A program made the position numbers and the translations under genes. From IMG/VR virus record IMGVR_UViG_2537561934_000016: a stretch of DNA of 15,809 nucleotides; one strand, given 5' to 3'. A model generated the notes under the pieces. That model saw nothing but the letters and a program-made list of their open reading frames with translations, made no database searches and was not told the origin of the DNA. The stretch is from a virus. Its lineage: Duplodnaviria; Heunggongvirae; Uroviricota; Caudoviricetes. Numbering within the stretch: position 1 is the stretch's first letter; each line of letters begins with the position of its first letter. Of this stretch, positions 1 to 15,566 are shown piece after piece.

Positions 1-474
1 ATGTACAGTCCGGTACAAATAGCCAATAAATTCATAACGTTGGGAAACCAACATCATAATCCTCTGACCCACATGCAACTGCAGAAGCTTACTTATATTG
101 CCCATGGTTACTATTTAGCATTAACAGGTAAGCCTTTGCTCAATGAATGTGTCTCCGCGTGGAAGTACGGTCCAGTTATTCCTGGAATGTACGATGCTTT
201 CAAAGACTATGGGAATAAACCTGTTACGAATGTAGCAGTAGCTCCTTTTGGTGGCATCGTTACTATGGATCCGCAAGCAGAGAGCATTATCGGGGCTGTT
301 TATAAGTTTTACGGCTCGAAAAATGGAATTGAGTTATCAACTCTAACTCATATGCCAGGTACGCCTTGGTCACAAGCTTATAATGGTATTGGCTCGTCGA
401 TCATCTCAAATGATGCGATCAAGGCTTATTATCATGATTTATTGAATAACCGACAGCAATGTCAGGGCCTCTGA
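1..474 (+). CDS. Panacea-domain (DUF4065; SocA/GepA-like) protein, putative antitoxin, 157 aa
   Basis: ATG at base 1, so the true start could lie upstream of the window. Translation has the DUF4065-like core LQKLTYIAHGYYLAL ... SAWKYGPVIPGMYDAFKDYG, recognised from memory of the family. A 22-nt gap separates it from the next same-strand ORF. Confidence 0.65.
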   Translation: MYSPVQIANKFITLGNQHHNPLTHMQLQKLTYIAHGYYLALTGKPLLNECVSAWKYGPVIPGMYDAFKDYGNKPVTNVAVAPFGGIVTMDPQAESIIGAVYKFYGSKNGIELSTLTHMPGTPWSQAYNGIGSSIISNDAIKAYYHDLLNNRQQCQGL

Positions 475-496
475 AAAAGTAATATTCAGGGATGAC

Positions 497-1045
497 ATGT
501 CTCATAATTCAGATATCTATAAACTGATCGGAGCGGCCGCAGGTGTTGAAAATGGTCGCTCTGAAGCATCCTTAAACTCTACTGACAGTCAAGAGCAGGC
601 TTTTGAATCCGCATTTGAGCCGTCTAATCATGAACGCGATGATGATTCTTCTTCAGAAAATAAGGCTATTCTGGAGGAAGAAGAGTTTGGTTCTAATACT
701 GGTGCATTGCATGAGTTTATGCAGCAGAACAGAATGGACAGTCTTCAAGCTCAGCTTGATATGCTCAAATCACAAGTACGGGATAAGATAGCTGACGCAA
801 CTGGTAAAGAAATAGACAATGAGCTCCGGACAAAAATGGCATCATTCACGGTTTGGTTTATGTCGTGTTGGTGCTTATTCGTTGTCGCAATGTTTACATC
901 GTTTCTTATTGCACATGAAGGAAAGGCTCCAGTTGAAGCGATCGTTGCATTACTAGGTACAAGTACAATTAGTATTGTTGGTTTGGTTGGTTTCGTTGTT
1001 AGTGGATTGTTCAAATCAAGAAAAGATAGTGATAAAGAAAAATAA
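497..1045 (+). CDS. Hypothetical membrane protein, 182 aa; candidate toxin partner of the Panacea protein
   Basis: ATG start with AGGGA 5 nt upstream. Acidic, Ser-rich N-terminus (DDDSSSENKAILEEEEF), a central charged helical segment, and two C-terminal hydrophobic helices (FTVWFMSCWCLFVVAMFTSFLIA and IVALLGTSTISIVGLVGFVVSGLF). No family recognised. Confidence 0.6.
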   Translation: MSHNSDIYKLIGAAAGVENGRSEASLNSTDSQEQAFESAFEPSNHERDDDSSSENKAILEEEEFGSNTGALHEFMQQNRMDSLQAQLDMLKSQVRDKIADATGKEIDNELRTKMASFTVWFMSCWCLFVVAMFTSFLIAHEGKAPVEAIVALLGTSTISIVGLVGFVVSGLFKSRKDSDKEK

Positions 1046-1084
1046 CCCGTACATATACGGGTTATCCATAGTTTTAGTTTAGTT
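1031..1084. terminator. Bidirectional intrinsic terminator between convergent genes
   Basis: Perfect 8-bp stem AACCCGTA/TACGGGTT (1044-1051 and 1056-1063) with a 4-nt loop, T-rich on the plus side (GTTTTAGTTTAGTT) and T-rich on the minus side (reverse complement of GATAAAGAAAAAT). Confidence 0.5.
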
Positions 1085-1348
1085 ATATTTTTTTTCCGTT
1101 CTGACTTTTTCCCACTCAGCTCGCCCTTCTTCCCGTCTTTTGTCAATATATTCCGCAAGATCCTGAATGTTGATGCAGCGTTTTGCTTTTTGTGATGTAC
1201 CGATGCGATATGTAGGTACAGGCAACTTACAAGCGTTTGCTTTTGCTTCTGCTGTGGCTGGACTCATACCAAAGTATTTTTGACTAACTGCTGAGAGTTC
1301 AATGTTTGGGGTATTGAATTCAGCCATCAGTAAAAACAAGGTATTCAT
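1079..1348 (-). CDS. PrtN-family (pyocin-activator-like) small DNA-binding regulator, 89 aa
   Basis: Translation MNTLFLLMAEF ... IQDLAEYIDKRREEG matches the remembered PrtN-family pattern (MNTLFLLMA ... DLAAYID). ATG confirmed as cat at 1346-1348, with GGAG 8 nt upstream on the minus strand. Confidence 0.75.
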   Translation of the reverse strand: MNTLFLLMAEFNTPNIELSAVSQKYFGMSPATAEAKANACKLPVPTYRIGTSQKAKRCINIQDLAEYIDKRREEGRAEWEKVRTEKKYN

Positions 1349-1384
1349 ATCATTTCTCCATCATAACCGGCTGCACCCGGTGAG

Positions 1385-2200
1385 TTACTTATTCATTTCA
1401 ATAATATTATTTTCTATCATTGATTTATTTAAAACCAAAGAAGGAGCAAGATGGTTGTCTATTTTAAACAATGCATAACTTTTAAACTGTTGGTGATATC
1501 CGTAACTAATAAGGATGCTAGAAAAATCTCTTAATTCATCTTCTTTTAAAAAATTAAAATGAAATGGGTTGTCACCATTTATGAACAATGAAACATCTAT
1601 TATGCAGTATTTCTCTCTGTTGTCATTTGCATAGAAAAAAATATAAGACATTCTGTTTGTTAAGACAATGCCATTAAATTTTCTTATGTCTGTAGCTATT
1701 TTGTTTTCCATGTTTGGTGCCACATATTTATTTTCAGAAATACATTTAATTTCATCTCCAGATGTCGTGATTATATAAAAATGAAACTTATCATAAATAT
1801 CTAACTTAACTACGCCATCATTATTATAAAGGCTGCTAAATTTTGGTGGTTCAACTTTTAAAGAATCATAGTTCTTTAAAAGAAGAGGGGAGTCAAATTT
1901 AATAACTTGTAGTATCCCTTTACCTTCAACCTCCATATTGATTGAAGATATAGCAATTGCATTATCTCTTTTATTATTCAGGATTATGGTTGATATATGC
2001 ATGTCATATATTCTACTTGCATTTGCTGAATACGACACTGTCACCTTTTTTGATATTTTTTGCACGCCAAAATATATAGTGAAGGCAGCGGCAAGAATAG
2101 ATAAGAATTTAATGTCAAATAAGGACCATAGCCACATTAGTTGCTCAATTGCTTCAGAGTTAATCATTTGCTTTACCATTATCGCTGTAATACAACACAT
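1385..2200 (-). CDS. Hypothetical protein with N-terminal transmembrane anchor, about 271 aa, AT-rich; start uncertain
   Basis: The 6-frame ORF 1385..2221 opens on TTG. In-frame ATGs lie at 2200, 2179 and 2167 and none has a strong Shine-Dalgarno. A hydrophobic helix (LMWLWSLFDIKFLSILAAAFTIYFGV) follows. No family recognised. Sits between the YfdQ-like and PrtN genes on the same strand. Confidence 0.5.
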   Translation of the reverse strand: MCCITAIMVKQMINSEAIEQLMWLWSLFDIKFLSILAAAFTIYFGVQKISKKVTVSYSANASRIYDMHISTIILNNKRDNAIAISSINMEVEGKGILQVIKFDSPLLLKNYDSLKVEPPKFSSLYNNDGVVKLDIYDKFHFYIITTSGDEIKCISENKYVAPNMENKIATDIRKFNGIVLTNRMSYIFFYANDNREKYCIIDVSLFINGDNPFHFNFLKEDELRDFSSILISYGYHQQFKSYALFKIDNHLAPSLVLNKSMIENNIIEMNK

Positions 2201-2321
2201 GTGTATATATACGCAATGCAATTATTTTGCAAGTGCTTCATTTACTATCAATAGCTTCGTCACGTTATTGTTTAATGGTTCTTTATAGGGGCGGCAATAG
2301 TTAAAATTATCGCTTCCGTAA

Positions 2322-2345
2322 ACGCCCCCGCAGGGGCATTTGCAG
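2322..2345 (-). terminator. Weak candidate intrinsic terminator after the YfdQ-like gene
   Basis: On the minus strand, GCCCC-TGCG-GGGGC hairpin followed by GTTTAC. Short stem and poor U-tract, so low confidence. Confidence 0.25.
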
Positions 2346-2353
2346 TAATGAAA

Positions 2354-3178
2354 TCAGGCGGTGAAAGTACCAATAAAGGTTTCTACTTTGCTGTCTTTGA
2401 ATTTCTCAACAAGCAGATCACGAAATTCGTTAGCCATTTCTTCCTGTACCGCTTCCAGCTGAATAATGCGCAGAACCAGTACAGGACGATCGCCAGTGAT
2501 AATGCTGAGGCGTAATTTAAACGGACGTTCTTTCAGACCTTCAAACGGAACGCATTTAAATTCAAATGCCACTGGCATAATGTCTTTGGTCTTCGCTTCG
2601 ACAGACTCCATCAGGGAGCGTTTGCCGCTGAAGTCATTATCTTCAAAATCAGCGGTCTGGTTCGCTTCAATTGTGATTTTACGGATCGCCGCAGCCGCTT
2701 TGGTTGCCTGAATGGCGTCACCATTAGCATCAAAGCCCACAAGGTAGTCGGCCCAGTCTTCAATCCATTCTGCCAGTGACTTCTGGGAGTTACGCTCGCC
2801 GTTAACAGACAACAGAGCAGAGAACGGTGCTGTCTTTTTCAGTTTGAGAGTGGCGGTGTTATCTGCGTGACCTGGTTCATCAATAGTACCCAGGTTAAGC
2901 ACACTGACGGCACGCATATTATCGGCATCGATAAAGCAGCGGGTGCCTTCATCTGCAAGAACTTTAGAATAACGGGTAAAGTCATCGATGCTGGCAGTGG
3001 AAAGCGCACCACGGAAACGGAAGCGATTTAAATTAAATTTTTCCAGATCATGAATGCGGAAATTCTCAGGCAATGCCACAGCATCGGCACCAATCTTACT
3101 GATAATTTCATTAACACCCTGAGCAGAAATAAGGGCATGGATTTGATTAATTGCGGTTGCGTCTAAGTTCTGAGACAT
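2354..3178 (-). CDS. yfdQ: YfdQ-like prophage protein (DUF2303 family), 274 aa
   Basis: ATG (cat 3176-3178) with GAGGA 7 nt upstream. The 274-aa length and position directly downstream of a 120-aa gene match the yfdP-yfdQ pair of E. coli cryptic prophages as I remember it. The symbol rests on recalled length and synteny, not alignment. Confidence 0.7.
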
Positions 3179-3243
3179 AATAAGTCCTCACTATATAAAA
3201 ATATTCAGTGATGAGATAAATAATCAGTTTATTAAGAACGATA

Positions 3244-3606
3244 TTAACGACCTGCTGCGCGGAGTTTTCCGTCAGGTTCACCGGCAAGAGTCAGTAATTG
3301 TCCCTGGTCCTCCTGCAGAATAGTCAGGCGACCACCGCGATTGACATACATCGGCGTTTCGGTGGTGTCTTCTTCGGAAATTTTCCCGCGGTTAGTCGGG
3401 CGAACATATGAGAGTTTGTGTTTGATTTTCACACGGTTCTCATCAAATGGTTCGATTTCCAGGTTGAGTGAGACCTTACCTTTGGTTTTCGTGTTCATCA
3501 CACCGGAAGCGACTTCACTGAGAACTGCGCCGATTTTGGTTTCAAATACGCCGCCGTCCAGCTCCCCGATAAATGCCTGCACATCAGTACTGCGTTCGCT
3601 AGCCAT
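3244..3606 (-). CDS. yfdP: YfdP-like prophage protein, 120 aa
   Basis: The 6-frame ORF runs to 3837, but its N-terminal 77 residues are Cys/Arg-rich and not protein-like. The ATG at 3604-3606 has a strong GAGGAG 7 nt upstream and gives MASERSTDVQAFIGELDGG..., 120 aa. Symbol assigned from remembered length and adjacency to the YfdQ-like gene. Confidence 0.6.
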   Translation of the reverse strand: MASERSTDVQAFIGELDGGVFETKIGAVLSEVASGVMNTKTKGKVSLNLEIEPFDENRVKIKHKLSYVRPTNRGKISEEDTTETPMYVNRGGRLTILQEDQGQLLTLAGEPDGKLRAAGR

Positions 3607-3654
3607 TTTGCTGCTCCTCATCATATCGACCCTGCAAGGTCGGTTGGTTTCTCC

Positions 3655-3743
3655 ACAAAACAGAGAAGAACACCTGCGGTGGCAGCCGCCCGGATGGATT
3701 GGGTTATGAGCCCGTCGTCCGGTGATGCTCTTCTCTGTTTTGT
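3655..3743. repeat. Long inverted repeat (about 17 of 18 bp) flanking a roughly 53-nt GC-rich spacer
   Basis: ACAAAACAGAGAAGAACA (3655-3672) against TGCTCTTCTCTGTTTTGT (3726-3743); 15 contiguous bp are perfectly complementary. Confidence 0.45.
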
Positions 3744-3789
3744 AAAAAGAGCGGTACCAGCCGGAAGCAAGTGTACAAACTGGTACCGC
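3744..3789 (-). terminator. Candidate intrinsic terminator (minus strand)
   Basis: Perfect 10-bp inverted repeat GCGGTACCAG (3751-3760) / CTGGTACCGC (3780-3789) with a 19-nt loop. On the minus strand the hairpin is followed by TCTTTTTAC. Confidence 0.3.
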
Positions 3790-4238
3790 CAAAGCAGTGG
3801 CTGTTGTGGTGGGGTTGTCACTCAGGCGTATGGTCAACCTGACAATCCGGTGTCCTCAACGGGGAAAGAGTAACCCCGCCATACTTACCGCCGCGCCATT
3901 TCGCGGATTACCACAACGCTGAGAGCACTTAGCCAGTTACGGCACCACACTTTGTCGCGGTTCCATAAATGCCCTCATCGTTGCACCCTGGTCTCTTCCC
4001 AGGCGTCAAACCGGATCGCCACGCTGGTTAGGCGTCTTATCAGCATCATCATTGACTTGCACATTCCGGCTACCTGGTTTGTTTGCCCGAGCAAGGAGTG
4101 GATTGTCCCCTTTAACGTCCCCAGACCGCTAACGACGCATGTGCCATACGCCGTGTTACAACCAAATTTAGTTTAATCTTGCCTGTGTTATGTATCCTAT
4201 AGATACATTATGTATCTTAAGGGTACATTGTCAAGTAT

Positions 4239-4260
4239 AAAAAAACCTGCCGAAGCAGGT
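4239..4260 (-). terminator. Intrinsic terminator downstream of the cI-like repressor gene
   Basis: Minus-strand sequence AACCTGC-TTCG-GCAGGTT followed by TTTTTTT (plus-strand A run 4239-4245, stem 4245-4260). Lies 13 nt past the repressor stop. Confidence 0.5.
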
Positions 4261-4272
4261 TATAAATATTGA

Positions 4273-4947
4273 TTAGGCCTTTATTTTGTATCTTCTTGGT
4301 TTTCCTGAGAAAATCACTGTACCAATTATAGAGCAATTACCGTTGATCTTAATGTAAGGTTCAGGCCAGTTTGGGTTTAATGCTTTGAGGTAACGCTGTG
4401 TTCCATCTTCTATCAACCGCTTGAAGGTGGTTTCGCCTGTATCGTGCATCAATGCAATAACGTCGTCACCGTGGCAGGCAGGGACTTCAGGATCAACAAA
4501 AATCATGTCTCCCGGGCGGTACTCATCAATCATTGAATCACCAATCACCCGCAAGATATAAGTCATTTCGCCACAGGGTACAGGGCAGGGATAAGTTTCT
4601 GCTGTGCTCAAATCAACCTCAGAATAGCCAACTTCTTTCCATGCTCCGGCCTGTACCCATGATATGACAGGGACTAACGTTATTTGTTTGTTAGTGATTG
4701 AAACGTCAGGTTTTTTTGTGATGTTCGTTGTCTGGTGTTCTTGATCAAGCCATCCGACAGGCAGGTCGAAACATTTTTCGATGTGCCGTGCCATGCTGTC
4801 ACCGATATTTTTAGTTGCACCATCTCCCATAAACCTGCTGGTCTGGGTTGGCTCGCGATCAATCATGGTGGCAAAGGAAGAATTCCCGCCAACACCATCT
4901 CTCAGTTTTCTGGCGTTAGACCGCCGGATGTCATGGACTGTTTTCAT
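4273..4947 (-). CDS. cI: Phage CI-type repressor, N-terminal DNA-binding domain plus C-terminal S24 (LexA-like) autopeptidase domain, 224 aa
   Basis: C-terminal domain carries the S24 catalytic motifs: Ser in ILRVIGDSMIDEY and Lys in TTFKRL. The N-terminal region ends in the DLPVGWLD pattern typical of phage repressor DNA-binding domains. Divergent from a cro-like gene. Confidence 0.85.
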   Translation of the reverse strand: MKTVHDIRRSNARKLRDGVGGNSSFATMIDREPTQTSRFMGDGATKNIGDSMARHIEKCFDLPVGWLDQEHQTTNITKKPDVSITNKQITLVPVISWVQAGAWKEVGYSEVDLSTAETYPCPVPCGEMTYILRVIGDSMIDEYRPGDMIFVDPEVPACHGDDVIALMHDTGETTFKRLIEDGTQRYLKALNPNWPEPYIKINGNCSIIGTVIFSGKPRRYKIKA

Positions 4948-4963
4948 AAAGAAATTAAAACCT

Positions 4964-4982
4964 TTGTACCGATAAGGTACAA
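4964..4982. promoter_or_regulatory. Candidate operator in the cI-cro intergenic region
   Basis: 19-bp palindrome TTGTACC-GATAA-GGTACAA with perfect 7-bp arms, 17 bp upstream of the cI start and about 55 bp upstream of cro. A further GGTACA half-site lies near 5026-5031. Confidence 0.4.
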
Positions 4983-5037
4983 GTATCTTGAAGGTTCATC
5001 TCAATCATGTAATATGTATACCGGAGGTACATATTGT

Positions 5038-5247
5038 ATGAAAGCGTATTGGGACTCTTTAACCAAAGAACAGCAGGGTGAGTTGGCCGGAAAAGTTGGC
5101 TCAACACCAGGCTACTTACGGCTGGTTTTCAATGGTTATAAAAAAGCCAGTTTTGTGCTGGCTAAAAAACTTGAGCAATGCACGTCAGGTGCAATTACGA
5201 AATCTGACTTAAGACCGGATATCCGGAAGACTGGGATGTCCTGCTGA
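5038..5247 (+). CDS. cro: Cro/YdaS-like HTH regulator, 69 aa
   Basis: ATG at 5038 with GGAGG 10 nt upstream. Translation MKAYWDSLTKEQQGELAGKVGSTPGYLRLVFNGYKK ... GAITKSDLRPDI resembles prophage Cro/YdaS proteins, which end in a DLRPDIF-type motif. The track's upstream extension to 4735 is antisense to cI and rejected. Confidence 0.7.
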   Translation: MKAYWDSLTKEQQGELAGKVGSTPGYLRLVFNGYKKASFVLAKKLEQCTSGAITKSDLRPDIRKTGMSC

Positions 5248-5933
5248 CGGATGTTTTTCATAAAAGCTGGCCGCTGGCCTCCGATCCTTCTCAACAAATG
5301 CGACTGATGGCAATGGCGGTGGACTCCGGCGGTGAAGACGGGGTCACTGATAATGCCTATAAATTCTGGCGTCGTTGCCGTCGTGATGGCCTTGGTAAAC
5401 GTATTTACCTGTTTAAGGGCGACAGCATCCGGCGCGCAAAACTGATCACCCGTACATTCCCTGATAACACCGGACGAACGGGCCGACGGGCGCAGGCCGC
5501 AGGTGATGTACCGCTCTGGCTTCTTCAGACGGATGCCCTGAAAGACCGGGTGAATAACGCGTTATGGCGTGACTCGCCAGGTCCCGGCTATGTGCATTTC
5601 CCTGACTGGCTGGGGAGCTGGTTTTACGACGAACTGACGTATGAAGAGCGGAGCAGTGACGGGAAATGGAGTAAGCCGGGTCGCGGTGCCAACGAAGCTT
5701 TTGACCTGATGGTGTATGCCGAGGCTCTGGTCATTCTGCATGGATACGAAAAGATCCGCTGGCCGGATGCACCGGAGTGGGCGAGCCGGGAAACCTGGCT
5801 GGAGTGTGTCCCGGACAGTACCGAACCGTCACCCACACCGGAACCGGTATCCACGCCTGTTAAAAAACAAAAACGGAAGAAAACAGTAACTGACGATGTT
5901 AACCCCTGGCTGACTTCCGGAGGATGGTTATGA
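5208..5933 (+). pseudogene. 3' fragment of lambda-type terminase large subunit (gpA-like C-terminal region), no start codon
   Basis: Reading frame opens straight after a TGA at 5205-5207 with no plausible start. Its stop overlaps the next start in an ATGA arrangement, as at the lambda A-W junction. Followed by gpW-like and portal genes. The ATPase N-terminal part and the small subunit are absent. Confidence 0.65.
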
Positions 5934-6142
5934 ATCAGAATGATATTGAAGCCATGATTCAGCGTTATACGGAAGCTGAAATGGCGGTGCTGGACGGAAA
6001 ATCCGTCACTTTTAATGGTCAGCAGATGACCATGGAAAACTTATCTGAGATCCGGCAGGGGCGGCAGGAGTGGGAGCGCCGCCTTGCGGCTCTGATTACA
6101 CGACGACGGGGGCATCCCGGGTACCGGCTGGCGAGGTTCTGA
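5930..6142 (+). CDS. gpW-like head-tail joining protein, 70 aa
   Basis: ATG at 5930 with GGAGG 7 nt upstream. C-terminus RRRGHPGYRLARF resembles the lambda gpW C-terminus (RRRGPAGFYV, recalled). Lies between terminase and portal as in lambda. Confidence 0.65.
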   Translation: MNQNDIEAMIQRYTEAEMAVLDGKSVTFNGQQMTMENLSEIRQGRQEWERRLAALITRRRGHPGYRLARF

Positions 6143-7494
6143 TGGCAATTCTTGATGATGTGATTGGCGTTTTTTCACCAGGATGGAAAGCGGCAAGGCT
6201 GCGTTCCCGAGCGGTGATCCAGGCTTATGAGGCCGTAAAAACGACGCGGACACACAAAGCCCGACGGGAGAACCGAACTGCCGACCAGTTAAGCCAGTAC
6301 GGGGCCGTGTCGTTACGTGAGCAGGCCCGTTACCTTGATAACAACCACGATCTGGTCATTGGTGTATTTGACAAGCTGGAAGAACGGGTGGTGGGGAAAA
6401 ACGGGATTATTGTCGAGCCACATCCGGTATTACGCAATGGGGCCATTGCCCGTGACCTGGCAGCGGAGATACGCACCCGATGGAGTGAATGGTCTGTCAG
6501 TCCGGAAGTCACCGGGCAGTTTACCCGCCCGATGCTGGAACGTCTGATGCTGCGTACCTGGCTGCGCGATGGTGAGGTGTTTGCCCAGATGGTTTCCGGG
6601 CGCATAAACAGCCTGACGCCTTCTGCCGGTGTTCATTTCTGGCTGGAGGCGCTCGAGCCGGACTTTATTCCCATGACCAGTGATGAGAGCAACAGGCTGA
6701 ATCAGGGCGTGTTTGTTGATGACTGGGGGCGTCCCGAAAAATATCTGGTGTATAAAAGCCGTCCTGTATCCGGACGGCAGATGGAAACCAAAGAAGTGGA
6801 TGCAGAGCGAATGCTGCATCTTAAATTTGTTCGCCGTCTGCACCAGATGCGCGGGACGTCTTTATTGTCCGGTGTACTGATCCGCCTCAGTGCCCTGAAA
6901 GAGTATGAAGATTCTGAGCTGACTGCAGCAAGGATCGCCGCTGCTCTGGGGATGTACATCCGGAAAGGCGACGGACAGAGCTATGAACCGGATGGTAATG
7001 GCAGCAAGGAGAATGAACGCGAGCTTACCATTCAGCCAGGCATTATTTACGACGATCTGAAACCCGGCGAAGAAATCGGAATGGTGAAGTCGGATCGCCC
7101 CAATCCTAATCTTGAAACTTTTCGTAATGGTCAGTTGCGTGCAGTGGCGGCTGGTAGTCGTCTGAGTTTTTCCAGTACAGCGCGCAACTATAACGGCACT
7201 TACAGCGCCCAGCGTCAGGAGCTGGTTGAGTCTACTGATGGCTACCTGATCCTGCAGGACTGGTTTATTGGTGCCGTCACCCGCCCGATGTATCGTGCAT
7301 GGCTGAAACAGGCTGTGGCATCCGGTGTTATCAGGTTACCCCGCGATCTTGACCGTTCTTCACTGTATACCGCGGTGTATTCCGGACCAGTGATGCCGTG
7401 GATTGACCCTGTTAAGGAGGCTGAGGCCTGGAAAATCCAGATTCGTGGTGGAGCGGCGACAGAATCAGACTGGGTATCCGGCAGGAAACACTGA
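6142..7494 (+). CDS. Phage portal protein (lambda gpB position), 450 aa, possibly C-terminally truncated
   Basis: ATG at 6142 overlaps the gpW stop (TGATG). Called by synteny (terminase, W, portal) and size; the sequence is not obviously close to lambda gpB from memory. The track start at 6070 is an upstream extension and rejected. Confidence 0.6.
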   Translation: MAILDDVIGVFSPGWKAARLRSRAVIQAYEAVKTTRTHKARRENRTADQLSQYGAVSLREQARYLDNNHDLVIGVFDKLEERVVGKNGIIVEPHPVLRNGAIARDLAAEIRTRWSEWSVSPEVTGQFTRPMLERLMLRTWLRDGEVFAQMVSGRINSLTPSAGVHFWLEALEPDFIPMTSDESNRLNQGVFVDDWGRPEKYLVYKSRPVSGRQMETKEVDAERMLHLKFVRRLHQMRGTSLLSGVLIRLSALKEYEDSELTAARIAAALGMYIRKGDGQSYEPDGNGSKENERELTIQPGIIYDDLKPGEEIGMVKSDRPNPNLETFRNGQLRAVAAGSRLSFSSTARNYNGTYSAQRQELVESTDGYLILQDWFIGAVTRPMYRAWLKQAVASGVIRLPRDLDRSSLYTAVYSGPVMPWIDPVKEAEAWKIQIRGGAATESDWVSGRKH

Positions 7495-7498
7495 ATGA

Positions 7499-10342
7499 AT
7501 GCACCCGTGCGGAGCAGTCGGCCAGCGTGGTGCTCTGGGAACCCATGCGACTGATGCTGCAGGCTCAGCACGTGCAGCCAGCACATCAGCCGGGCAGGCC
7601 GCGACGTCGGCTCAGTCAGCGTCTTCCAGCGCAGGAACGGCATCAACAAAGGCTACTGAAGCATCAAAAAGTGCTGCCGCTGCAGAGTCCTCAAAAAGCG
7701 CGGCGGCTACCAGTGCCGGTGCGGCGAAAACGTCAGAAACGAATGCTGCAGCGTCACAAAAATCTGCAGCCACTTCTGCATCCACCGCGACCACGAAAGC
7801 GTCAGAAGCTGCCACCTCAGCCCGGGATGCGGCGGCCTCAAAAGAGGCAGCGAAATCATCAGAAACGAGCGCAGCCTCGAGCGCCAGTAGTGCAGCCTCT
7901 TCGGCAACGGCGGCAGGAAATTCCGCGAAGGCCGCAAAAACGTCTGAGACGAATGCGGATAACAGCGCACAGGCGGCAGCGGCCTCACAAACTGCATCGG
8001 CAAACTCCGCGACAGCAGCCAAAAAATCAGAAACCAACGCGAAAAATAGCGAGGCAGCAGCAAAGAGCAGCGAAACTAATGCTAAATCCAGTGAAACAAA
8101 CGCGGCGAAATCTGCAGCGGACGCACTTAATTATCGCAACCAGGCACAATCCGTTGTTGGTAACAATATTGGTCTTGGTGAAGTTGCTATGACCTGCACT
8201 GATATCTCTGTTGAGCCATCAGGTTATATTGGATTTATCAGGATTTACATCTCAGCGAAAGGTTATCCATCAGTAGCGTCTAGTGCCGGGGATAATCTTA
8301 TTTCTGGTTATATAGTTAGATCAGAAGTGTCAACAAAAAGATATTCCGGTCTATTTGTTGGTTCAGATACAAAATCATTGTATTCGTACATTTACAGCCA
8401 AAGTTCTGGCCCGCAATGGATACGTCATACCCGCAGAGATGAATTAAGCCGCTTTGGTCAAAATGAATCAACAACTCGTATGTATGGTCCAACTGGTGAT
8501 CGTTTCTTTGAAATCCATACTAACGGGAGTTGGGGGGTTTATGATTCTTCTTCTGGACAATGGTCTCCGTTAGGTTTAGCCCAGGGTGGTACTGGTGGAA
8601 GAACTATCGAGCAAGCACGTGCGAACTTGCGGGTAATGTATGAGCAAAAAGCTGGCCTTGCTAATACTGACCTAAACACCCTTACCGGTGAATATTCTGG
8701 TTTCTATCAACAACCAACGAGCGCTTACGCAACAGAAGAATTAAATTACCCAATCGGTCTGGCGGGCGCTTTAATAGTGCTCCAAACGAGAGCCAACACT
8801 GCTTCTTCCTGCGTTCAGGTGTACCACCCTTATAATAATCCGGGAATTACTTATAGACGAATATATGAAGGAGGTAGCGGTACCTGGTCTGAATGGAAGA
8901 GAGATGTATCAACAGAAAGGGTTGAAGAGGGAAAAGAAACAACTTACGTATATTCTACGTATTCTTCAGGCGCACCACGCTTACAGGTTTCCAAATCTGG
9001 TTTGTGGGGTTGTCATAATGGCACTGGCTGGTTGCCATTAGCTGTTGGGCAAGGAGGTACAGGTGCGACAACAGTAGAAGATGCGCGAAACAACTTAAGT
9101 CTTGGCGAAAGTAGCGCAGTTAAATTTAAAAACCTTACTTTAACCGAAGCGCTCGACACGACATTAGGACTGCTTACAAAAACAGGACGAGACTGGAACG
9201 CTCAGCATACTGATAACGTCGACAAATTTAGACCAATTGCAGGCAGTACAAACGGCCCGGCAGGCTCTATGGTTCTTGGCGGCATTCATGTTCAATTTAG
9301 TAAAAATTATGCTGTGCAGTTCGGAGGCCGCAATTCCGGTTTTTGGGGAAGAACAATTGAAAATGGAACGACGCAGGAATGGAAGAAATTACTAACAGTA
9401 GACGATCTCAATTCATCTACCGCTCTTGCTGTCAGGTCATTAACCACATCTAACCCGATAAAATCTGGCGGAGGGCGGATTGATGTCCTTGGAAGCACGT
9501 CAGACTATAGCAAAATGGATTGCTTTGTACGTGGGTTTGATAGCACCGGTAATTCTCTCGCGTGGGCGTTGGGTTCATCAGTCGGCGTAAGTAAGATGCT
9601 GTCGCTAAAAAATTTCTTTAGCGGAGCTGAGATACTGCTAAATGGTAATGACGGCGCGGTTCAACTCAAAACAGGTGCTGTTAACGGTGCTAAAGCGCAG
9701 GCGCTCACTATCAACAAGGATGAGGTTAACTCAACTGTTGATTTAACTCTTACAAAACAAACAGGGACTGGCAATCGTTTTGTTTTACAGAACTTAGGTA
9801 ATACAGAACTACCATTTGCTGTCAAGGTGTGGGGTTCAGGTGATCGACAAAACGTTTTTGAGGTTGGAACGTCTGCCGCGTATCTGTTTTATGCTCAAAA
9901 AACATCGTCAGGTCAGCTGTTTGATGTAAACGGTGCTATTAACTGTACAACACTGAATCAGTTATCAGACCGCGAGCTGAAAGACAATATTCAGATTATC
10001 AGTGACGCAACCGAAGCTATCCGTAAAATGAACGGGTACACCTACACACTTAAGGAAAACGGACTGCCTTACGCTGGTGTTATTGCACAGGAAGCAATGG
10101 AGGCAATACCGGAAGCGGTAGGCTCATTCACTCATTACGGTAAAGAGTTGCAGGGACCAACGGTTGACGGCAATGAATTACGTGAAGAAACACGTTATCT
10201 GAATGTTGACTACGCCGCCGTGACGGGCTTACTTGTTCAGGTCGCCCGTGAAACAGATGATCGCGTTACCGCGCTGGAAGAAGAAAACGCAGAATTAAAA
10301 CAAAGATTATCTGCAATTGAGGCGGCGCTTGCCTCTAAATAA
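7499..10342 (+). CDS. stf: Side tail fibre (Stf-like) protein, N-terminally truncated, with C-terminal S74 intramolecular-chaperone domain, 947 aa
   Basis: Residues from about 15 onward (ATDAAGSARAASTSAGQAATSAQ ... AAATSAGAAKTSETNAAASQKSAATSAS) match an internal region of lambda Stf as I recall it. The C-terminal part begins with the S74 autoproteolysis signature SDRELKDNIQ (Ser codon at 9965-9967) and ends in a coiled coil. The frame opens 1 nt after a TGA. Confidence 0.8.
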   Translation: MHPCGAVGQRGALGTHATDAAGSARAASTSAGQAATSAQSASSSAGTASTKATEASKSAAAAESSKSAAATSAGAAKTSETNAAASQKSAATSASTATTKASEAATSARDAAASKEAAKSSETSAASSASSAASSATAAGNSAKAAKTSETNADNSAQAAAASQTASANSATAAKKSETNAKNSEAAAKSSETNAKSSETNAAKSAADALNYRNQAQSVVGNNIGLGEVAMTCTDISVEPSGYIGFIRIYISAKGYPSVASSAGDNLISGYIVRSEVSTKRYSGLFVGSDTKSLYSYIYSQSSGPQWIRHTRRDELSRFGQNESTTRMYGPTGDRFFEIHTNGSWGVYDSSSGQWSPLGLAQGGTGGRTIEQARANLRVMYEQKAGLANTDLNTLTGEYSGFYQQPTSAYATEELNYPIGLAGALIVLQTRANTASSCVQVYHPYNNPGITYRRIYEGGSGTWSEWKRDVSTERVEEGKETTYVYSTYSSGAPRLQVSKSGLWGCHNGTGWLPLAVGQGGTGATTVEDARNNLSLGESSAVKFKNLTLTEALDTTLGLLTKTGRDWNAQHTDNVDKFRPIAGSTNGPAGSMVLGGIHVQFSKNYAVQFGGRNSGFWGRTIENGTTQEWKKLLTVDDLNSSTALAVRSLTTSNPIKSGGGRIDVLGSTSDYSKMDCFVRGFDSTGNSLAWALGSSVGVSKMLSLKNFFSGAEILLNGNDGAVQLKTGAVNGAKAQALTINKDEVNSTVDLTLTKQTGTGNRFVLQNLGNTELPFAVKVWGSGDRQNVFEVGTSAAYLFYAQKTSSGQLFDVNGAINCTTLNQLSDRELKDNIQIISDATEAIRKMNGYTYTLKENGLPYAGVIAQEAMEAIPEAVGSFTHYGKELQGPTVDGNELREETRYLNVDYAAVTGLLVQVARETDDRVTALEEENAELKQRLSAIEAALASK
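7540..8110 (+). repeat. Ala/Ser/Thr-rich degenerate tandem repeats inside the tail-fibre gene
   Basis: Repeated units of the form AAKTSETNA / AAKSSETNAKSSETNAAKSA. The GC-rich low-complexity DNA gives spurious long ORFs in other frames. Confidence 0.5.
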
Positions 10343-10348
10343 TATTAA

Positions 10349-10370
10349 GGGGCTGTGCGCCCCGTTTTAT
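10349..10370 (+). terminator. Intrinsic terminator after the tail-fibre gene
   Basis: GGGGC-TGTGC-GCCCC hairpin followed by GTTTTATT, 7 nt after the stop codon. Confidence 0.6.
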
Positions 10371-10384
10371 TGGGTAGGATGAAA

Positions 10385-10672
10385 ATGGGTATAACACCTT
10401 TCCTTCATGCACTTTGTGCTGTGGCTGCGCAGATACTGGTGGGGCTTTTTACCGGAAACTGGGTTTACGGAGCGATAGCCAGTTGTACGTTCTTCATTGC
10501 GGGCGAACACACCCAAGCATAATATCGCTGGATTGAAATGTTCGGGCATGGCAAGCGGATTAACATGCCGTGGTGGGGCGGTTTTGATCCACGCGCATGG
10601 GATGTGGCAAGCCTGATGGATTTTGCTGTGCCGATGGTAGCGTGTCTTCTGATCTGGCTGTTGATCCGTTGA
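10385..10672 (+). pseudogene. Small hydrophobic protein gene interrupted by one in-frame TAA (45 aa, stop, 49 aa)
   Basis: ATG at 10385 with AGGA 5 nt upstream. Translation MGITPFLHALCAVAAQILVGLFTGNWVYGAIASCTFFIAGEHTQA, then TAA at 10520-10522, then in the same frame YRWIEMFGHGKRINMPWWGGFDPRAWDVASLMDFAVPMVACLLIWLLIR. Below the ORF-track size cutoff. Family not recognised. Confidence 0.3.
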
Positions 10673-10680
10673 ACATAAAA

Positions 10681-10729
10681 AGCCGCAGCAACTTGCCATG
10701 GCAGGATACTGCGGCTGGTTTGTGAGTTT
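10681..10729. terminator. Candidate bidirectional terminator between the small membrane ORF and the RT gene
   Basis: 8-bp stem AGCCGCAG (10681-10688) / CTGCGGCT (10709-10716) enclosing a perfect 10-bp palindrome TGCCATGGCA. T-rich on both flanks (GGTTTGTGAGTTT on plus; TTTTATGT on minus). Confidence 0.35.
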
Positions 10730-10850
10730 AAATAGTGTGTTTATTGCGATATATTTTAATGACTTAATGGATTACATATCTATGATATTCCTGAAATATC
10801 CTCTTCAAGCTCTTTTACTGATTTCGCAATTTTAAATTTAAACTTCCTCT

Positions 10851-12149
10851 CTATTTCACTATTGCTAAGTTTTTTTCCTTCTCTTTACCTATCCACATAG
10901 AAACAAGTTCTCGTTTCTGAGATATATGTAGATTGTCAAAGTTAGGTATGTATTTAAAAGTCTCCGCTCTACCTCTGCGGAGTTCATAGAAAGTTTTAAT
11001 CAAAGATTTTGGTTTTATTTCTGATGAAAGGCCGAATCGGCGGATAAGATTATTGATAGTATGATTAACAGAGCGAAGTTGAGCTGTTGAGGTTATTTGT
11101 GAGAAGTACGATACCCATCCCAATCGTTTACCTTCAAACACACATCCCGTAATTCTGAGATTTAGTTTCCACTGACAATATGCAACAGCTCGTTCTTTAT
11201 CACGCTTACTTTTAGCTTGTAGTAGAGCGTGCCTATATGCAGTAAAAATTTTTGCTAAGGATGACTCAAATCTAAGAATGCTCTCATGTTTTATCAATAA
11301 TTCTCGATTTTCTATGTGGTATCCCAAAAAGTTAAAACTTTCATCCAAACTGCCTACTTTGGATTTTGAGTTCTCTTCATTTAATGGATGTGGGTTTAAA
11401 TTTAATGATTGAAGCTTATCAATGATATGAGAAGCTATTTTTGTTGCTTGATATTTTGGTGTTAAAATAAGAATGTCATCAACGTATCGCATGTACCATA
11501 TGTCATGCATTTTATTGATTTCATCATCGAAATTAGATAGTGATATTTCAGCTAAAATGTTTGATATCGCTAATCCCTGAGGTACTCCTCTGGTATTATT
11601 AGGGATACCTTTGCTTCCTGTGGTTCCACTTACAGTAGGCACGATTAATGATGATGTTATTAACTGTCTAATTTCTTTTTTTCTAATTTTATTTTTTATT
11701 GCATTAATTATCAATTTATGTTCAATTGAAGGATAGAAACTTTTAAGATCTATTTTTGCATATTCAGCATATAGACTGTTGTTTAATGCTTCTTTCAATG
11801 AGTCAATTACTGTATGTGGTAGTTTTAATCTGGACTTAGGATATATTTCCGTAAGGCATTCACAGAGAGCTCTAAGAGTAATTCTGTCCCTAGCAGTTGG
11901 TATGGAAATCTGTCTGGGTGTAGAGTTAGCGCCTTTAGATATTAATTTTTCTTTATATGCTGTAAATTTGTAATTGCCAGAATTAACCTTTTCAAAAATG
12001 AAAGTGATCTCATTTTTTATTGTCAAATCAAGTTTTGATGGGCGAATCCGATCTATGCCAATCGCTCCTGATTCTTTGATTTTTTCAGAGTATACTTTTA
12101 GAAGATTTTTTTTCGAGAATGACTTTTTAAAAATTCTGCTTGCAGTCAT
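10851..12149 (-). CDS. Reverse transcriptase (defence-associated Abi/UG/retron-like RT), about 432 aa
   Basis: RT motifs are readable in the translation: IPTARDRITLRAL, GVPQGLAISNILAEISLSNFDDEI, catalytic YMRYVDDILIL (YVDD) and FNFLGYHI, followed by a roughly 130-aa C-terminal extension. The track start at 12155 is TTG; the first ATG is at 12149. The start overlaps the 3' end of the upstream membrane-protein gene by 23 nt. Strongly AT-rich. Confidence 0.85.
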   Translation of the reverse strand: MTASRIFKKSFSKKNLLKVYSEKIKESGAIGIDRIRPSKLDLTIKNEITFIFEKVNSGNYKFTAYKEKLISKGANSTPRQISIPTARDRITLRALCECLTEIYPKSRLKLPHTVIDSLKEALNNSLYAEYAKIDLKSFYPSIEHKLIINAIKNKIRKKEIRQLITSSLIVPTVSGTTGSKGIPNNTRGVPQGLAISNILAEISLSNFDDEINKMHDIWYMRYVDDILILTPKYQATKIASHIIDKLQSLNLNPHPLNEENSKSKVGSLDESFNFLGYHIENRELLIKHESILRFESSLAKIFTAYRHALLQAKSKRDKERAVAYCQWKLNLRITGCVFEGKRLGWVSYFSQITSTAQLRSVNHTINNLIRRFGLSSEIKPKSLIKTFYELRRGRAETFKYIPNFDNLHISQKRELVSMWIGKEKEKNLAIVK

Positions 12150-12678
12150 AGTCAATCCAAAGATATATTAATGGGAGTATATAAAGTGCGGCAGTAATAA
12201 ATATTCGAAGTAATATCCATAAAATAACAATTATTTTTTCTTTTTGTGTGGGGATCCTCGTCTTAAGTCCAACTTGAGTTACCCTTGAAATTTTATCATC
12301 TATGTCACGGTGATTCTCAACCTCATTGAGCAAATTAAAATATTTTTCTTTCTGTTCAAGAGATAACTGTTGACTGGTGGTAATGTCAAAATAGAGTCGC
12401 TGTAGTGCAATATAATTCCTTCTCATGGCTATTGCTCGACCACGAAAATCTAGGTTAGATACGATCAGAGAAATACCCAGTAGAGCCACTGAAAGTATCG
12501 CCGCAACGACATCTGTATTATCTCCTAGAACCTTTGGAAATCGCAACGTTACAATTGAAAGTACCGCACTCAATATAGCATACCAAACGAGGATAAATTG
12601 AGAGTGTTTTTCAAGCCATTCTAGTCGATGGTGCGCTTGGATACGTGCTTTATATGTAAACCAAATATTGTCATGCAT
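12127..12678 (-). CDS. Multi-pass membrane protein (SLATT-like topology by inference), 183 aa, co-operonic with the RT
   Basis: ATG (cat 12676-12678) with AAGGA 6 nt upstream. Hydrophobic helices ILVWYAILSAVLSIVTLRF, VVAAILSVALLGISLIVSN and IIVILWILLRIFITAALYILPLIYLWI. The 3' end overlaps the RT start. Confidence 0.7.
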   Translation of the reverse strand: MHDNIWFTYKARIQAHHRLEWLEKHSQFILVWYAILSAVLSIVTLRFPKVLGDNTDVVAAILSVALLGISLIVSNLDFRGRAIAMRRNYIALQRLYFDITTSQQLSLEQKEKYFNLLNEVENHRDIDDKISRVTQVGLKTRIPTQKEKIIVILWILLRIFITAALYILPLIYLWIDYDCKQNF

Positions 12679-12689
12679 AAAAGATCCTT

Positions 12690-12832
12690 TTTAAAAGCGG
12701 AAGGGGCAGGATATATTGGAACCGTTGAACATCCTGCCCGGCAGGATCAGTGAGCATAAGCTCAACAGTAAAATATTACTGTTCATTATCAGAGCCGCCC
12801 TTGCATGCGCAAGAGGAAAAACCTGCCCCATC
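12690..12832 (-). ncRNA. Structured 5' leader or candidate non-coding RNA upstream of the membrane-protein/RT operon
   Basis: Three copies of an 8-9 bp element in inverted orientation: GGGGCAGGAT (12703-12712), the palindrome ATCCTGCCCGGCAGGAT (12731-12747) and CCTGCCCC (12822-12829). Further local hairpins at CAGTAA-AATA-TTACTG (12765-12780) and around TTGCATGCGCAA (12801-12812). No ORF. Confidence 0.25.
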
Positions 12833-12840
12833 CCTTTGAA

Positions 12841-12869
12841 TTATTACAATTTAATGATCTTAAAGTCAA
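12841..12869 (-). promoter_or_regulatory. Candidate sigma70 promoter for the leader/membrane-protein/RT operon
   Basis: Minus strand reads TTGACT (-35; plus 12864-12869), a 17-nt spacer, then TAATAA (-10; plus 12841-12846) preceded by TG. Sequence match only. Confidence 0.3.
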
Positions 12870-12900
12870 TACAAGTGAATGGTGTCCAGAGATGATGAAC

Positions 12901-13149
12901 TTAATGAACAAACCACTCGTCAGCAGACTCCCAGGTATCTTTCAGAGTCTCCTGAACAAAAGTTTTAGCTGAATCTTTATCAGCGGTGCGCGTAACAGAA
13001 AGGCCATCGTTGCTGGTGGCTTTTACGATCACTTCTACATCGTCATAACGTTTACTGATGCGTCGGGTTAATTCTTCCTTTAACGCATCCACAGCACCGG
13101 TTGGCATTTTAGTCATTTTTTCTTTGGCTATGCAGATTTCAATACGCAT
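12901..13149 (-). CDS. DinI-family (DNA-damage-inducible protein I-like) protein, 82 aa
   Basis: Translation [31 protein letters not shown] ... [11 protein letters not shown] matches the remembered DinI pattern (MRIEVTIAK ... ETWESADDWFV). AGGGGA 6 nt upstream of the ATG. Two LexA boxes lie directly upstream. Confidence 0.8.
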
Positions 13150-13161
13150 AAAAGTCCCCTA

Positions 13162-13181
13162 CACTGTATTTGTATACAGTA
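13162..13181. promoter_or_regulatory. LexA (SOS) box 1
   Basis: CACTGTATTTGTATACAGTA fits the CTGT-N8-ACAG consensus (TACTGTATATATATACAGTA) with an AT-rich core, 13-32 nt upstream of the dinI-like start. Confidence 0.6.
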
Positions 13182-13189
13182 TTATTTTT

Positions 13190-13209
13190 AACTGTATGGA
13201 TAAACAGTG
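13190..13209. promoter_or_regulatory. LexA (SOS) box 2
   Basis: AACTGTATGGATAAACAGTG fits CTGT-N8-ACAG. It lies 28 bp from box 1 and abuts the integrase stop codon. Confidence 0.5.
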
Positions 13210-14307
13210 TCAAGAGGTCTTATTTCTGCTCCTTTGGAGTTCTTCAAAACGATTATGTAAAGATTTCGGATACAGTTCGGTATATACCTGCCATAGCACG
13301 TTTAATGAACGATGCCCTGTAACCTGAGCGACTTCCTCAATACTAAAACCAGCCTCAAATAAGCGACTTGCCCCTTCTCTACGCAAATCATGGTATCTCA
13401 GATCTTTAATACCTAATTTGCTTCTTACCCTCTGAAATCCTGCGGTAACAGAAGTGCTGTTATATGGAAAAATGAATTCTGATTTTTTGGGTTGTCGCTG
13501 GACGATATCCCAGGCTTCCCCAAGCAAGGCAACTTTCATATGGTTGCCTTCCTTTTTACGTGGATCTTTCCTGTCTCTTACTAGTATAGATTTTTGTTCC
13601 TGGTCGAGATCTTCCCATCGTAACCGGCATACTTCTCCGATTCGCATACAGGACCACACAGAAAATTTGAGGATATCAACGAACGGAATTTTTGAGCATT
13701 TATGAGTAGATCGTTGTTGAAGGCCTTCAATGAGCATGTTCAGTTCATCAGATGCTGGTCTACGATTACGACGGTTTGATTTACCAATCAAACCGAGTTT
13801 AAGTAGATATGGACGAGCGCTTTTCGCCGGGTTTGATGTGTAATTGATTCCGTATACAGGTTTTGCCGCATCCAGAACACTGCCAAGATAACTAACATCG
13901 TGGCTGACTGTTGCTGGGCCTGCACCAGCGTTGTTTCTTAGCCTGCAATGTTCAATTACGTCATTTTCTGTCAGTTCAGATAGTTTGATCGCGGAGATGT
14001 CACTATCCATAAGCAGTTCCAGCACATATCTTTTAGTACGGCCTGCTTTACCTCCGGCATTTGGGTCATTTAAATATTTGTGTAGTAAGTCACGGACTGT
14101 AAGTCCGTCAACAGCATTTGATGATGGAATGCCATATAGATCTAATTCCATCACTTTCTGTGCGCCCCATGTTTTGGCATGAGCATGTTTAGGGAATGTT
14201 TTGCTTTCCCTGTAAGTGATAACACCTTTTTCTTTGATAATCACATTACAGCGATAGCGTGGTGTGCCATCGGATTTTAGTCGTTTCTCTATGTTATAGT
14301 ACGCCAT
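13210..14307 (-). CDS. int: Tyrosine recombinase / phage integrase (dusA-associated type by context), 365 aa
   Basis: Integrase-sized protein whose C-terminal region HDLRREGASRLFEAGFSIEEVAQVTGHRSLNVLWQVYTELY carries the His/Arg/Tyr pattern of tyrosine recombinases. Encoded divergently from dusA, 88 bp from its start. Confidence 0.9.
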   Translation of the reverse strand: MAYYNIEKRLKSDGTPRYRCNVIIKEKGVITYRESKTFPKHAHAKTWGAQKVMELDLYGIPSSNAVDGLTVRDLLHKYLNDPNAGGKAGRTKRYVLELLMDSDISAIKLSELTENDVIEHCRLRNNAGAGPATVSHDVSYLGSVLDAAKPVYGINYTSNPAKSARPYLLKLGLIGKSNRRNRRPASDELNMLIEGLQQRSTHKCSKIPFVDILKFSVWSCMRIGEVCRLRWEDLDQEQKSILVRDRKDPRKKEGNHMKVALLGEAWDIVQRQPKKSEFIFPYNSTSVTAGFQRVRSKLGIKDLRYHDLRREGASRLFEAGFSIEEVAQVTGHRSLNVLWQVYTELYPKSLHNRFEELQRSRNKTS

Positions 14308-14326
14308 TACACGACCTCGTTATTTC

Positions 14327-14362
14327 GGGTTCCCATAAAGCGTGGGAACCTGTGCGGGAACC
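14327..14362. promoter_or_regulatory. GGGAACC repeat cluster in the int-dusA intergenic region (candidate integrase or regulator binding sites)
   Basis: GGGTTCCC (14327-14334, inverted) plus two direct copies of GGGAACC (14344-14350 and 14356-14362) spaced 12 bp apart. Confidence 0.3.
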
Positions 14363-14395
14363 TAACGCGAGAAAAATAGCCTGAAATGTTCAAAA

Positions 14396-15433
14396 ATGCA
14401 CGATAATCCTGAAACACAGAAAACTAATCAAACCAGCGTGATGCCTGAAAAAACTGGCGCTTACTGGAGTTCTCGGTTTAGCATTGCTCCTATGCTCGAC
14501 TGGACGGACAGACATTGCCGCTATTTCTTGCGTCTGCTTTCCCGCAATACGTTGCTGTATACCGAAATGGTGACCACAGGGGCGATTATTCACGGTAAAG
14601 GTGATTACCTGGCGTACAGTGAAGAAGAACATCCGGTAGCGTTGCAACTCGGCGGTAGCGATCCGGCGGCGCTGGCACAGTGTGCGAAGCTGGCAGAAGC
14701 GCGTGGATATGATGAGATCAACCTGAATGTCGGCTGCCCGTCTGACCGGGTGCAGAACGGCATGTTTGGTGCGTGTCTGATGGGTAATGCGCAGCTGGTT
14801 GCCGACTGCGTGAAAGCGATGCGCGATGTGGTGTCGATTCCAGTGACGGTGAAAACGCGTATTGGCATCGATGACCAGGACAGCTATGAATTTCTCTGCG
14901 ATTTCATCAACACCGTTTCCGGCAAAGGCGAGTGTGAGATGTTTATCATCCACGCACGTAAAGCCTGGCTTTCGGGGTTAAGCCCGAAAGAAAACCGTGA
15001 AATCCCGCCGCTCGATTATCCGCGTGTGTATCAACTGAAGCGTGACTTTCCGCATCTGACAATGTCGATTAACGGTGGTATCAAGTCGCTGGAAGAGGCC
15101 AAAGCACACCTGCAACATATGGATGGCGTGATGGTCGGGCGCGAGGCGTATCAGAATCCGGGTATTCTGGCGGCGGTAGACCGGGAGATCTTTGGTTCCT
15201 CGGATACCGATGCCGATCCAGTGGCGGTAGTGCGCGCCATGTATCCGTACATTGAGCGTGAACTCAGCCAGGGGACGTATCTCGGCCATATTACCCGGCA
15301 TATGTTGGGCTTGTTCCAGGGTATTCCTGGCGCGCGGCAGTGGCGGCGTTATTTAAGTGAAAATGCCCATAAAGCGGGTGCAGACATTAATGTGCTGGAA
15401 CACGCGCTCAAACTGGTGGCGGATAAGCGTTAA
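14396..15433 (+). CDS. dusA: tRNA-dihydrouridine(20/20a) synthase DusA, 345 aa
   Basis: Translation carries the Dus family core ([19 protein letters not shown] ... [13 protein letters not shown] ... catalytic region) and ends ... LKLVADKR, as in E. coli DusA. An alternative in-frame start is at 14441 (MPEKTG). The 5' end may be element-supplied. Confidence 0.9.
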
Positions 15434-15464
15434 CTTTTCACCAAAAAGTAGTCAAATTCACCAC

Positions 15465-15497
15465 GCCCTGCGCACCGTCGCGGGGCATTTTGCTGTT
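15465..15497 (+). terminator. Candidate intrinsic terminator after dusA
   Basis: CCCTGCG-CACCGT-CGCGGGG hairpin (one G-U pair) followed by CATTTTGCTGTT. Confidence 0.45.
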
Positions 15498-15515
15498 AAA
15501 TCAATAGATTATTTT

Positions 15516-15531
15516 TGGCATGATTCTTGTA
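15516..15531 (+). promoter_or_regulatory. sigma54-type promoter of pspG
   Basis: TGGCAT-GATTC-TTGTA has the same -24/-12 pattern as the pspA promoter as I recall it (TGGCAC-GCAAA-TTGTA). It sits about 35 nt upstream of the pspG start. Confidence 0.55.
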
Positions 15532-15566
15532 ATGCCAGCAAGAGATTTCATATTTGGGAGAGCATC

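Follow-up and report, generated by a model that had tools for sequence, protein, structure and literature searches.

A prophage-borne gene pair of Escherichia coli matches the PanAT(Esc. col.) toxin–antitoxin operon

We conclude with high confidence that the first two genes of the window (the whole stretch of DNA analysed here, 15,809 nt) are the type II toxin–antitoxin operon PanAT(Esc. col.), carried as a cassette at the attL end of a prophage, with the mechanism and the likely role that are proposed below. The initial annotation, made from the letters of the DNA, had suggested that a Panacea-domain gene, panA, and the small membrane protein gene behind it, panT, form a PanA-type toxin–antitoxin or abortive-infection pair. 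This finding is correct, but it is not new. The pair has already been published and experimentally characterised, and the first reading is a rediscovery of a validated toxin–antitoxin pair.

The pair was published by Kurata et al. (2022, PNAS 119:e2102212119, PMC8832971). Their Table 1 has, for E. coli STEC O31, PanA(Esc. col.)–PanT(Esc. col.) entered as 'Membrane', with the toxin WP_000019185.1 and the antitoxin WP_000287252.1. In their dataset the pair is assigned to toxin cluster T3 with status 'TA', and its genes are ordered A|T with a spacing of 22 (PMC8832971). In the window the PanA accession, the order of antitoxin before toxin and the 22-nt spacing are the same, and the toxin has the same charged N-terminus and C-terminal transmembrane (TM) helices. 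The features of PanT cluster T3 are present in detail: residues 1-66 contain 16 D/E versus 4 K/R (net -12), and two hydrophobic helices cover residues ~115-139 and ~149-172. Two traits of the PanAT class are also found here, a Panacea domain in the antitoxin and a closely spaced, same-strand arrangement of two genes. The toxin accession differs, being WP_000019186.1 here and WP_000019185.1 in the tested pair, and the two are probably neighbouring alleles. WP_000019185.1 was not met in 10 annotated E. coli loci of differing identity; the STEC O31 genome is a draft assembly and does not belong to the complete-genome set. In the GenBank record of Escherichia phage PhiR47_1 the orthologues are annotated as 'PanA antitoxin' and 'PanT toxin'.

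In the published experiments PanAT(Esc. col.) passed the spot assays for both toxicity and neutralisation (PMC8832971). Metabolic labelling showed that PanT(Esc. col.) blocks transcription, translation and replication non-selectively (PMC8832971). It also causes depolarisation, followed with DiSC3(5), and the entry of SYTOX Green, from which the authors conclude that large pores are formed (PMC8832971). HokB served as the comparator in these experiments (PMC8832971). Complexes were recovered by pull-down for five other PanAT pairs, the E. coli pair not being among those (PMC8832971). Hence, the proposal that the 182-aa protein is a membrane-depolarising toxin agrees with published work on the neighbouring allele WP_000019185.1, not on WP_000019186.1 of the window (PMC8832971). 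We assume by analogy that the allele of the window is toxic as its tested neighbour is.

Features of the window, with positions counted from its first letter
Feature	Position	Strand	Product or extent	Remarks
panA	1..474	+	157 aa, standalone Panacea (DUF4065) antitoxin, RefSeq WP_000287252.1	pI 8.5
panA–panT spacer	475..496	+	22 nt	weak ribosome-binding site AGGGA at 488-492, 4 nt 5' of the panT ATG
panT	497..1045	+	182 aa, predicted membrane toxin, RefSeq WP_000019186.1	acidic N-terminus, long helix, C-terminal 2TM hairpin
panT two-TM-helix region	839..1012	+	aa ~115-139 and ~149-172, short loop HEGKAPVEA	most conserved part of the family
hairpin ATAACCCGTACATATACGGGTTAT	1042..1065	both	10-12 bp, GC-containing	between the convergent panT and PrtN-family gene
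PrtN-family gene	1079..1348	-		convergent with panT
CI-like LexA-family repressor	4273..4947	-		within the prophage
defence-associated reverse transcriptase	10851..12155	-	PADLOC RT_UG17, E 8e-151	
RT-associated SLATT protein	12127..12678	-	PADLOC E 1.5e-56	overlaps the RT gene
integrase	13210..14307	-		end opposite panAT
dusA, intact	14396..15433	+		end opposite panAT

The assignment of the first open reading frame to the Panacea/DUF4065 domain, made at first from the sequence alone, is confirmed by a profile search. PF13274 (SocA_Panacea) of Pfam matches with E 5.9e-18 and 66.3 bits versus a gathering score of 25.7, and the match spans profile positions 1-112 of 113. The product, whose stop codon TGA is at 472-474, also matches phrog_1281 (E 6.6e-49). 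Among solved structures none is related in sequence to PanA at E ≤ 0.01.

The frame opens at the very first base of the window, and the initial annotation had asked for its 5' end to be viewed in a longer sequence. Megablast matches the first 1400 bases to many complete E. coli chromosomes with an identity of 100%, and in the identical loci WP_000287252.1 is the RefSeq accession for PanA and WP_000019186.1 that for PanT; the same 157-aa product is annotated in E. coli APEC O78 and in the isolate 07B21CPO001. An E. coli locus of 100% identity shows what precedes the ATG: a Shine-Dalgarno sequence, GGAGG, separated from it by 6 nt, and, 18 codons upstream, a stop in the same frame. The ATG at base 1 is thus identified as the true start of panA. 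The sole other start, an ATG 5 codons upstream, is located within the Shine-Dalgarno sequence itself. Many prophage contigs of IMG/VR begin at exactly this ATG; therefore, the start of the frame at base 1 results from the cut made at the prophage boundary.

The 182-aa protein with an acidic N-terminus and two C-terminal TM helices, read at first 22 nt behind panA, is borne out by the coordinates, composition and hydropathy. The size of PanT is ~20 kDa. Over both hydrophobic segments the Kyte-Doolittle means for 19 residues are ≥1.6 with a peak of 2.2, and the C-terminal tail, KSRKDSDKEK, is basic. A low-confidence AlphaFold2 model, calculated from an alignment of 26 sequences (mean pLDDT 60.6, pTM 0.28) and used for secondary structure only, predicts a partly disordered N-terminus, a helix of residues 68-139 that continues into TM1, a loop of residues 140-145 and a second helix of residues 146-179.

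PanT is covered over its full length by phrog_13343 (E 2.9e-111), and no significant family was found for it in Pfam, NCBIfam or PADLOC. Against the defence models of PADLOC-DB v2 both PanA and PanT give matches at chance level only (E 0.02-0.03). There are 67 PanT homologues at E ≤ 1.4e-18, all of them from Enterobacterales or metagenomic contigs. The N-terminal half of the family is variable, and the C-terminal half with both TM helices is nearly invariant. In 26 homologues, down to 31% identity, the invariant columns are G..IDN.LR..A..T..FM..WC.FV and ALxGTS..I.GLVGF.VSGLFK. Of 5426 complete E. coli genomes, 79 contain the Panacea and toxin genes together, on the chromosome in every case. 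Since PanT has 67 homologues with E < 1e-18 and the pair recurs in these genomes, panA and panT are real genes and not chance frames. The antisense frame 751..1158 (-) and the other overlapping frames were rejected as by-products of the real genes.

At codon 144 of panT (nt 926-928), in the loop between the helices, the window has Ala, and all other E. coli alleles examined have Pro. The same column varies among distant homologues, and hence we expect the A144 allele to be active. It might also have been tuned in its function. No other allele among the listed members of the cluster was seen on so many contigs (939). The PanT alleles found beside an identical PanA differ from that of the window by 1-15 of 182 residues (92-99.5% identity), the most divergent being that of locus L004. 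Other accessions of PanT in annotated E. coli loci are WP_000019187.1, WP_021563277.1, WP_000089360.1, WP_053878051.1 and WP_059274466.1. We note that the two partners vary unequally within E. coli, PanA being often 100% identical and PanT differing by up to 15 residues, or 8%. The differences between the alleles cluster in the acidic N-terminus and in TM1, where W120C, C124W, V130A, A131V and T134V are found.

The pairing is conserved in other genomes, as the initial annotation had proposed to check. From four look-ups of gene neighbourhoods and a scan of viral contigs we obtained 59 loci, 58 of them with a detectable PanT homologue; in the remaining one (L071) phmmer finds no match to PanT. 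One of the 58 was set aside, as its contig begins at PanT and contains no upstream DNA. In all the others (57/57) PanT is immediately preceded, on its own strand, by a PanA homologue. They comprise 37 distinct PanA–PanT pairs, in which the two proteins diverge together: identity is 44-100% for PanA and 34-100% for PanT, and the genes are separated by gaps of 12-47 nt. In nearly all E. coli alleles the gap is 21-22 nt.

The window, 1..15809, represents the degraded remains of a lambdoid prophage with dusA as its integration site. Of this gene a 105-nt fragment is located ~300 nt upstream of panA, and the intact copy lies with the integrase at the other end. The prophage retains truncated terminase and portal genes, a tail-fibre/S74 peptidase gene and DinI, and most of the structural genes are lost. 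Its intact phage relatives are PhiR47_1, 1720a-02 and phiSTEC1575-Stx2k. At the attL end no operon lies further out than panAT. It has a promoter and a terminator to itself, a layout typical of accessory cassettes. The dataset of Kurata et al. flags the locus of PanAT(Esc. col.) as 'NotPhage' (PMC8832971), whereas the copy in the window is inside the dusA prophage. This label is thus corrected, the PanAT pair being prophage cargo.

A σ70 consensus promoter, TTGACA-16-TATAAT, with 12/12 matching positions, is located 185 nt 5' of the panA ATG and outside the window (locus L001, L001:17816-17843), and leaves panA with a 5' leader of about 150 nt. The promoter is unchanged in 14 of the 14 E. coli loci with at least 200 nt of upstream DNA. 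Such a promoter suggests that panAT is expressed in the lysogen. At the other end of the operon the hairpin overlaps the panT stop codon and is 14 nt from the stop of the PrtN-family gene. It is called terminator-like on both strands, and its fold of -12.7 kcal/mol corresponds to z = -2.8 versus shuffled sequences. Judged from the sequence, this hairpin probably terminates the transcripts of panT and of the PrtN-family gene. Of the shared bidirectional terminator that was proposed at first, the hairpin and its terminator-like character on both strands are present; termination in both directions is plausible rather than proven, the T-tracts being modest.

Other genes of the same prophage also deserve mention. 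Adjoining the PrtN-family gene, the frame 1385..2221 (-) encodes a 260-278-aa protein of phrog_14996, which has no match in Pfam, PADLOC or NCBIfam. This slot is variable: other dusA prophages with the same panAT carry a 3'-5' exonuclease here, followed by a DUF551 or hypothetical gene. The reverse transcriptase (RT) and SLATT genes form a two-gene system of the DRT type in the same prophage remnant as panAT. A homopolymer at ~10870-10877 is T7 in the window and T8 in 07B21CPO001, therefore the C-terminus of the RT is altered, with ~432 aa here versus 456 aa in that isolate. In APEC O78 the RT is split into two frames.

The distant homologues of PanT (31-50% identity) are almost all located between gpA (PF05840) and the portal gene of P2-like prophages. 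This slot, adjacent to cos, is a hotspot that has been shown to hold anti-phage systems (PMC9122126). In the hotspot, the neighbours of distant panAT are a CBASS cyclase with Cap15, an OLD/GajA-like ATPase, PDC-S28 or an HNH protein, or there are none. In Providencia the panAT copy adjoins a type I restriction-modification system. Most relatives of the P2-like phages concerned do not have panAT, and the slot is accessory and non-essential. Thus, PanA–PanT(T3) occupies two kinds of slot: in dusA lambdoid prophages the cassette at the attL end, in P2-like prophages the gpA–portal hotspot. Neither the P2 hotspot paper (PMC9122126) nor its 2026 follow-up mentions Panacea or DUF4065, and no phage-challenge experiment on PanAT was found in the searchable literature, where PanAT was dealt with in two papers from the same laboratories. 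In the hotspot of two P2-like prophages further genes follow panAT without a match in Pfam or PADLOC: one (L052:4812-7184, +) has three of them, with 269, 223 and 287 aa, and the other (L055:4866-5549, +) a single 227-aa gene. These genes may be defence cargo that is not yet catalogued.

We suggest the following mechanism for the operon. PanA, a soluble, basic protein with a single Panacea domain, would be translated first from the common mRNA and would neutralise PanT. PanT would be a protein of the inner membrane, in which the two C-terminal helices, nearly invariant in the family, are arranged as a hairpin across the membrane. Basic residues flank the sides of the helices that would be cytoplasmic, and the loop between them is slightly acidic; thus, by the positive-inside rule, the acidic N-terminal domain and the basic C-terminal tail are both predicted to face the cytoplasm. 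When PanT is not neutralised, the literature on the neighbouring allele leads us to expect depolarisation and the opening of pores of a size to pass SYTOX Green, after which all macromolecular synthesis would stop. The whole would act as a self-contained accessory cassette, driven from its own σ70 promoter, closed by its own terminator and placed at the attL end of the dusA-integrating lambdoid prophage.

By analogy to a PanT:PanA pair of Bartonella, we infer that PanA neutralises PanT by direct binding to its cytoplasmic N-terminal region and to the helix that precedes the TM part. In B. choladocola the contacts predicted for a standalone-Panacea PanA are the unstructured N-terminal region of the 2TM toxin and its short pre-TM helix (PMC10440598), and mutants of this interface lose neutralisation (PMC10440598). 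The charges of the E. coli proteins are complementary, with a pI of 8.5 for PanA versus the net -12 of the PanT N-terminus. The pair PanT(D11/T12):PanA of Bartonella apis/choladocola resembles that of the window in its composition, a standalone Panacea antitoxin and a toxin with a charged N-terminus and C-terminal TM helices (Kurata et al. 2022, PMC8832971; Ernits et al. 2023, PMC10440598). It also resembles PanT(Esc. col.) in its effect, as the Bartonella toxin likewise causes depolarisation and pores permeable to SYTOX. Direct binding to the N-terminal region and the pre-TM helix was proposed for the Bartonella antitoxin itself, whereas for the E. coli pair it is drawn by analogy. The two toxins belong to separate sequence clusters; their homology is thought possible by the authors, but it is not established.

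The same outcome, namely the loss of membrane potential and a global metabolic shutdown, is known for membrane-depolarising Abi/TA effectors such as HokB, RexB and the Rosmer toxins, but these have no sequence relationship to PanT. Their regulators also differ from PanA: antisense RNA for Hok, RexA for RexB and RmrA for Rosmer, versus a Panacea protein for PanT.

Two other accounts of how the proteins work can be set against direct neutralisation of a pore-forming toxin. The antitoxin of the type VI system SocAB of Caulobacter shares the Panacea/DUF4065 fold family with PanA, and PanA might be read as a proteolytic adaptor like SocA, which delivers the toxin to ClpXP, instead of a stoichiometric inhibitor. 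The Pfam family name SocA_Panacea invites such a reading, as do the 'SocA domain-containing' label of PanA in some RefSeq records and a partial match to SocA_antitoxin of NCBIfam (NF047745). This match of 97 bits is, however, far under the equivalog cutoff of 190. The Caulobacter system combines SocA, an adaptor for ClpXP, with SocB, a toxin whose target is the β-clamp, whereas the toxin here is a membrane protein unrelated to SocB. Moreover, ClpXP and Lon are dispensable for neutralisation by PanA, and PanAT pairs are classed as type II (Kurata et al., PMC8832971). The adaptor reading is thus largely refuted, and we regard it as extremely improbable. It is also highly improbable that PanT is a holin-like lysis or exclusion protein and the Panacea protein an antiholin-like regulator that times lysis. 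PanT does look the part, being a small phage-encoded 2TM protein whose C-terminal tail is charged and which makes the inner membrane permeable, and both proteins are in PHROG families. However, panAT does not belong to a lysis cassette; it is found at the attL end, has a promoter and terminator of its own and is convergent with early-region genes, and its consensus σ70 promoter implies expression in the lysogen. P2-like phages also carry it in a non-essential accessory hotspot that is without it in most relatives, and PanT has no match to a holin family of Pfam.

As to the natural role, the genomic context points to abortive infection or the exclusion of competing phages as the most likely one, with PanT set free when PanA is lost or displaced. 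We favour defence because of the hotspot context of the distant homologues; the restriction-modification neighbour in Providencia and the DRT-type RT and SLATT genes in the window's own prophage also speak for it. A further-reaching version, in which PanA–PanT(T3) is a prophage-borne anti-phage system lacking in the defence catalogues and the Panacea protein senses a phage cue and thereby releases the pore-forming PanT, is one we hold tentatively, at somewhat less than an even chance. The pair may instead be an addiction or stabilisation module: with the loss of the element or of PanA, a longer-lived PanT would kill the cell, thus keeping the dusA and P2-like prophages in the population. This follows the classical logic of type II systems. 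The pair also persists in a heavily degraded prophage, as expected of an addictive module that outlasts its phage, and its chromosomal location in every E. coli genome that has it is in line with this role. On the other hand, its repeated placement in the gpA–portal slot of P2-like prophages, beside known defence systems, is typical of anti-phage cargo, and the dispensability of Lon and ClpXP for neutralisation lends no support to a labile antitoxin. Addiction thus appears a rather unlikely explanation, though a role in addiction and a role in defence are not mutually exclusive.

Returning to the defence reading, we note that members of the PanAT family are always found as pairs, and time and again in hotspots recognised for phage defence. 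[quoted passage not shown]
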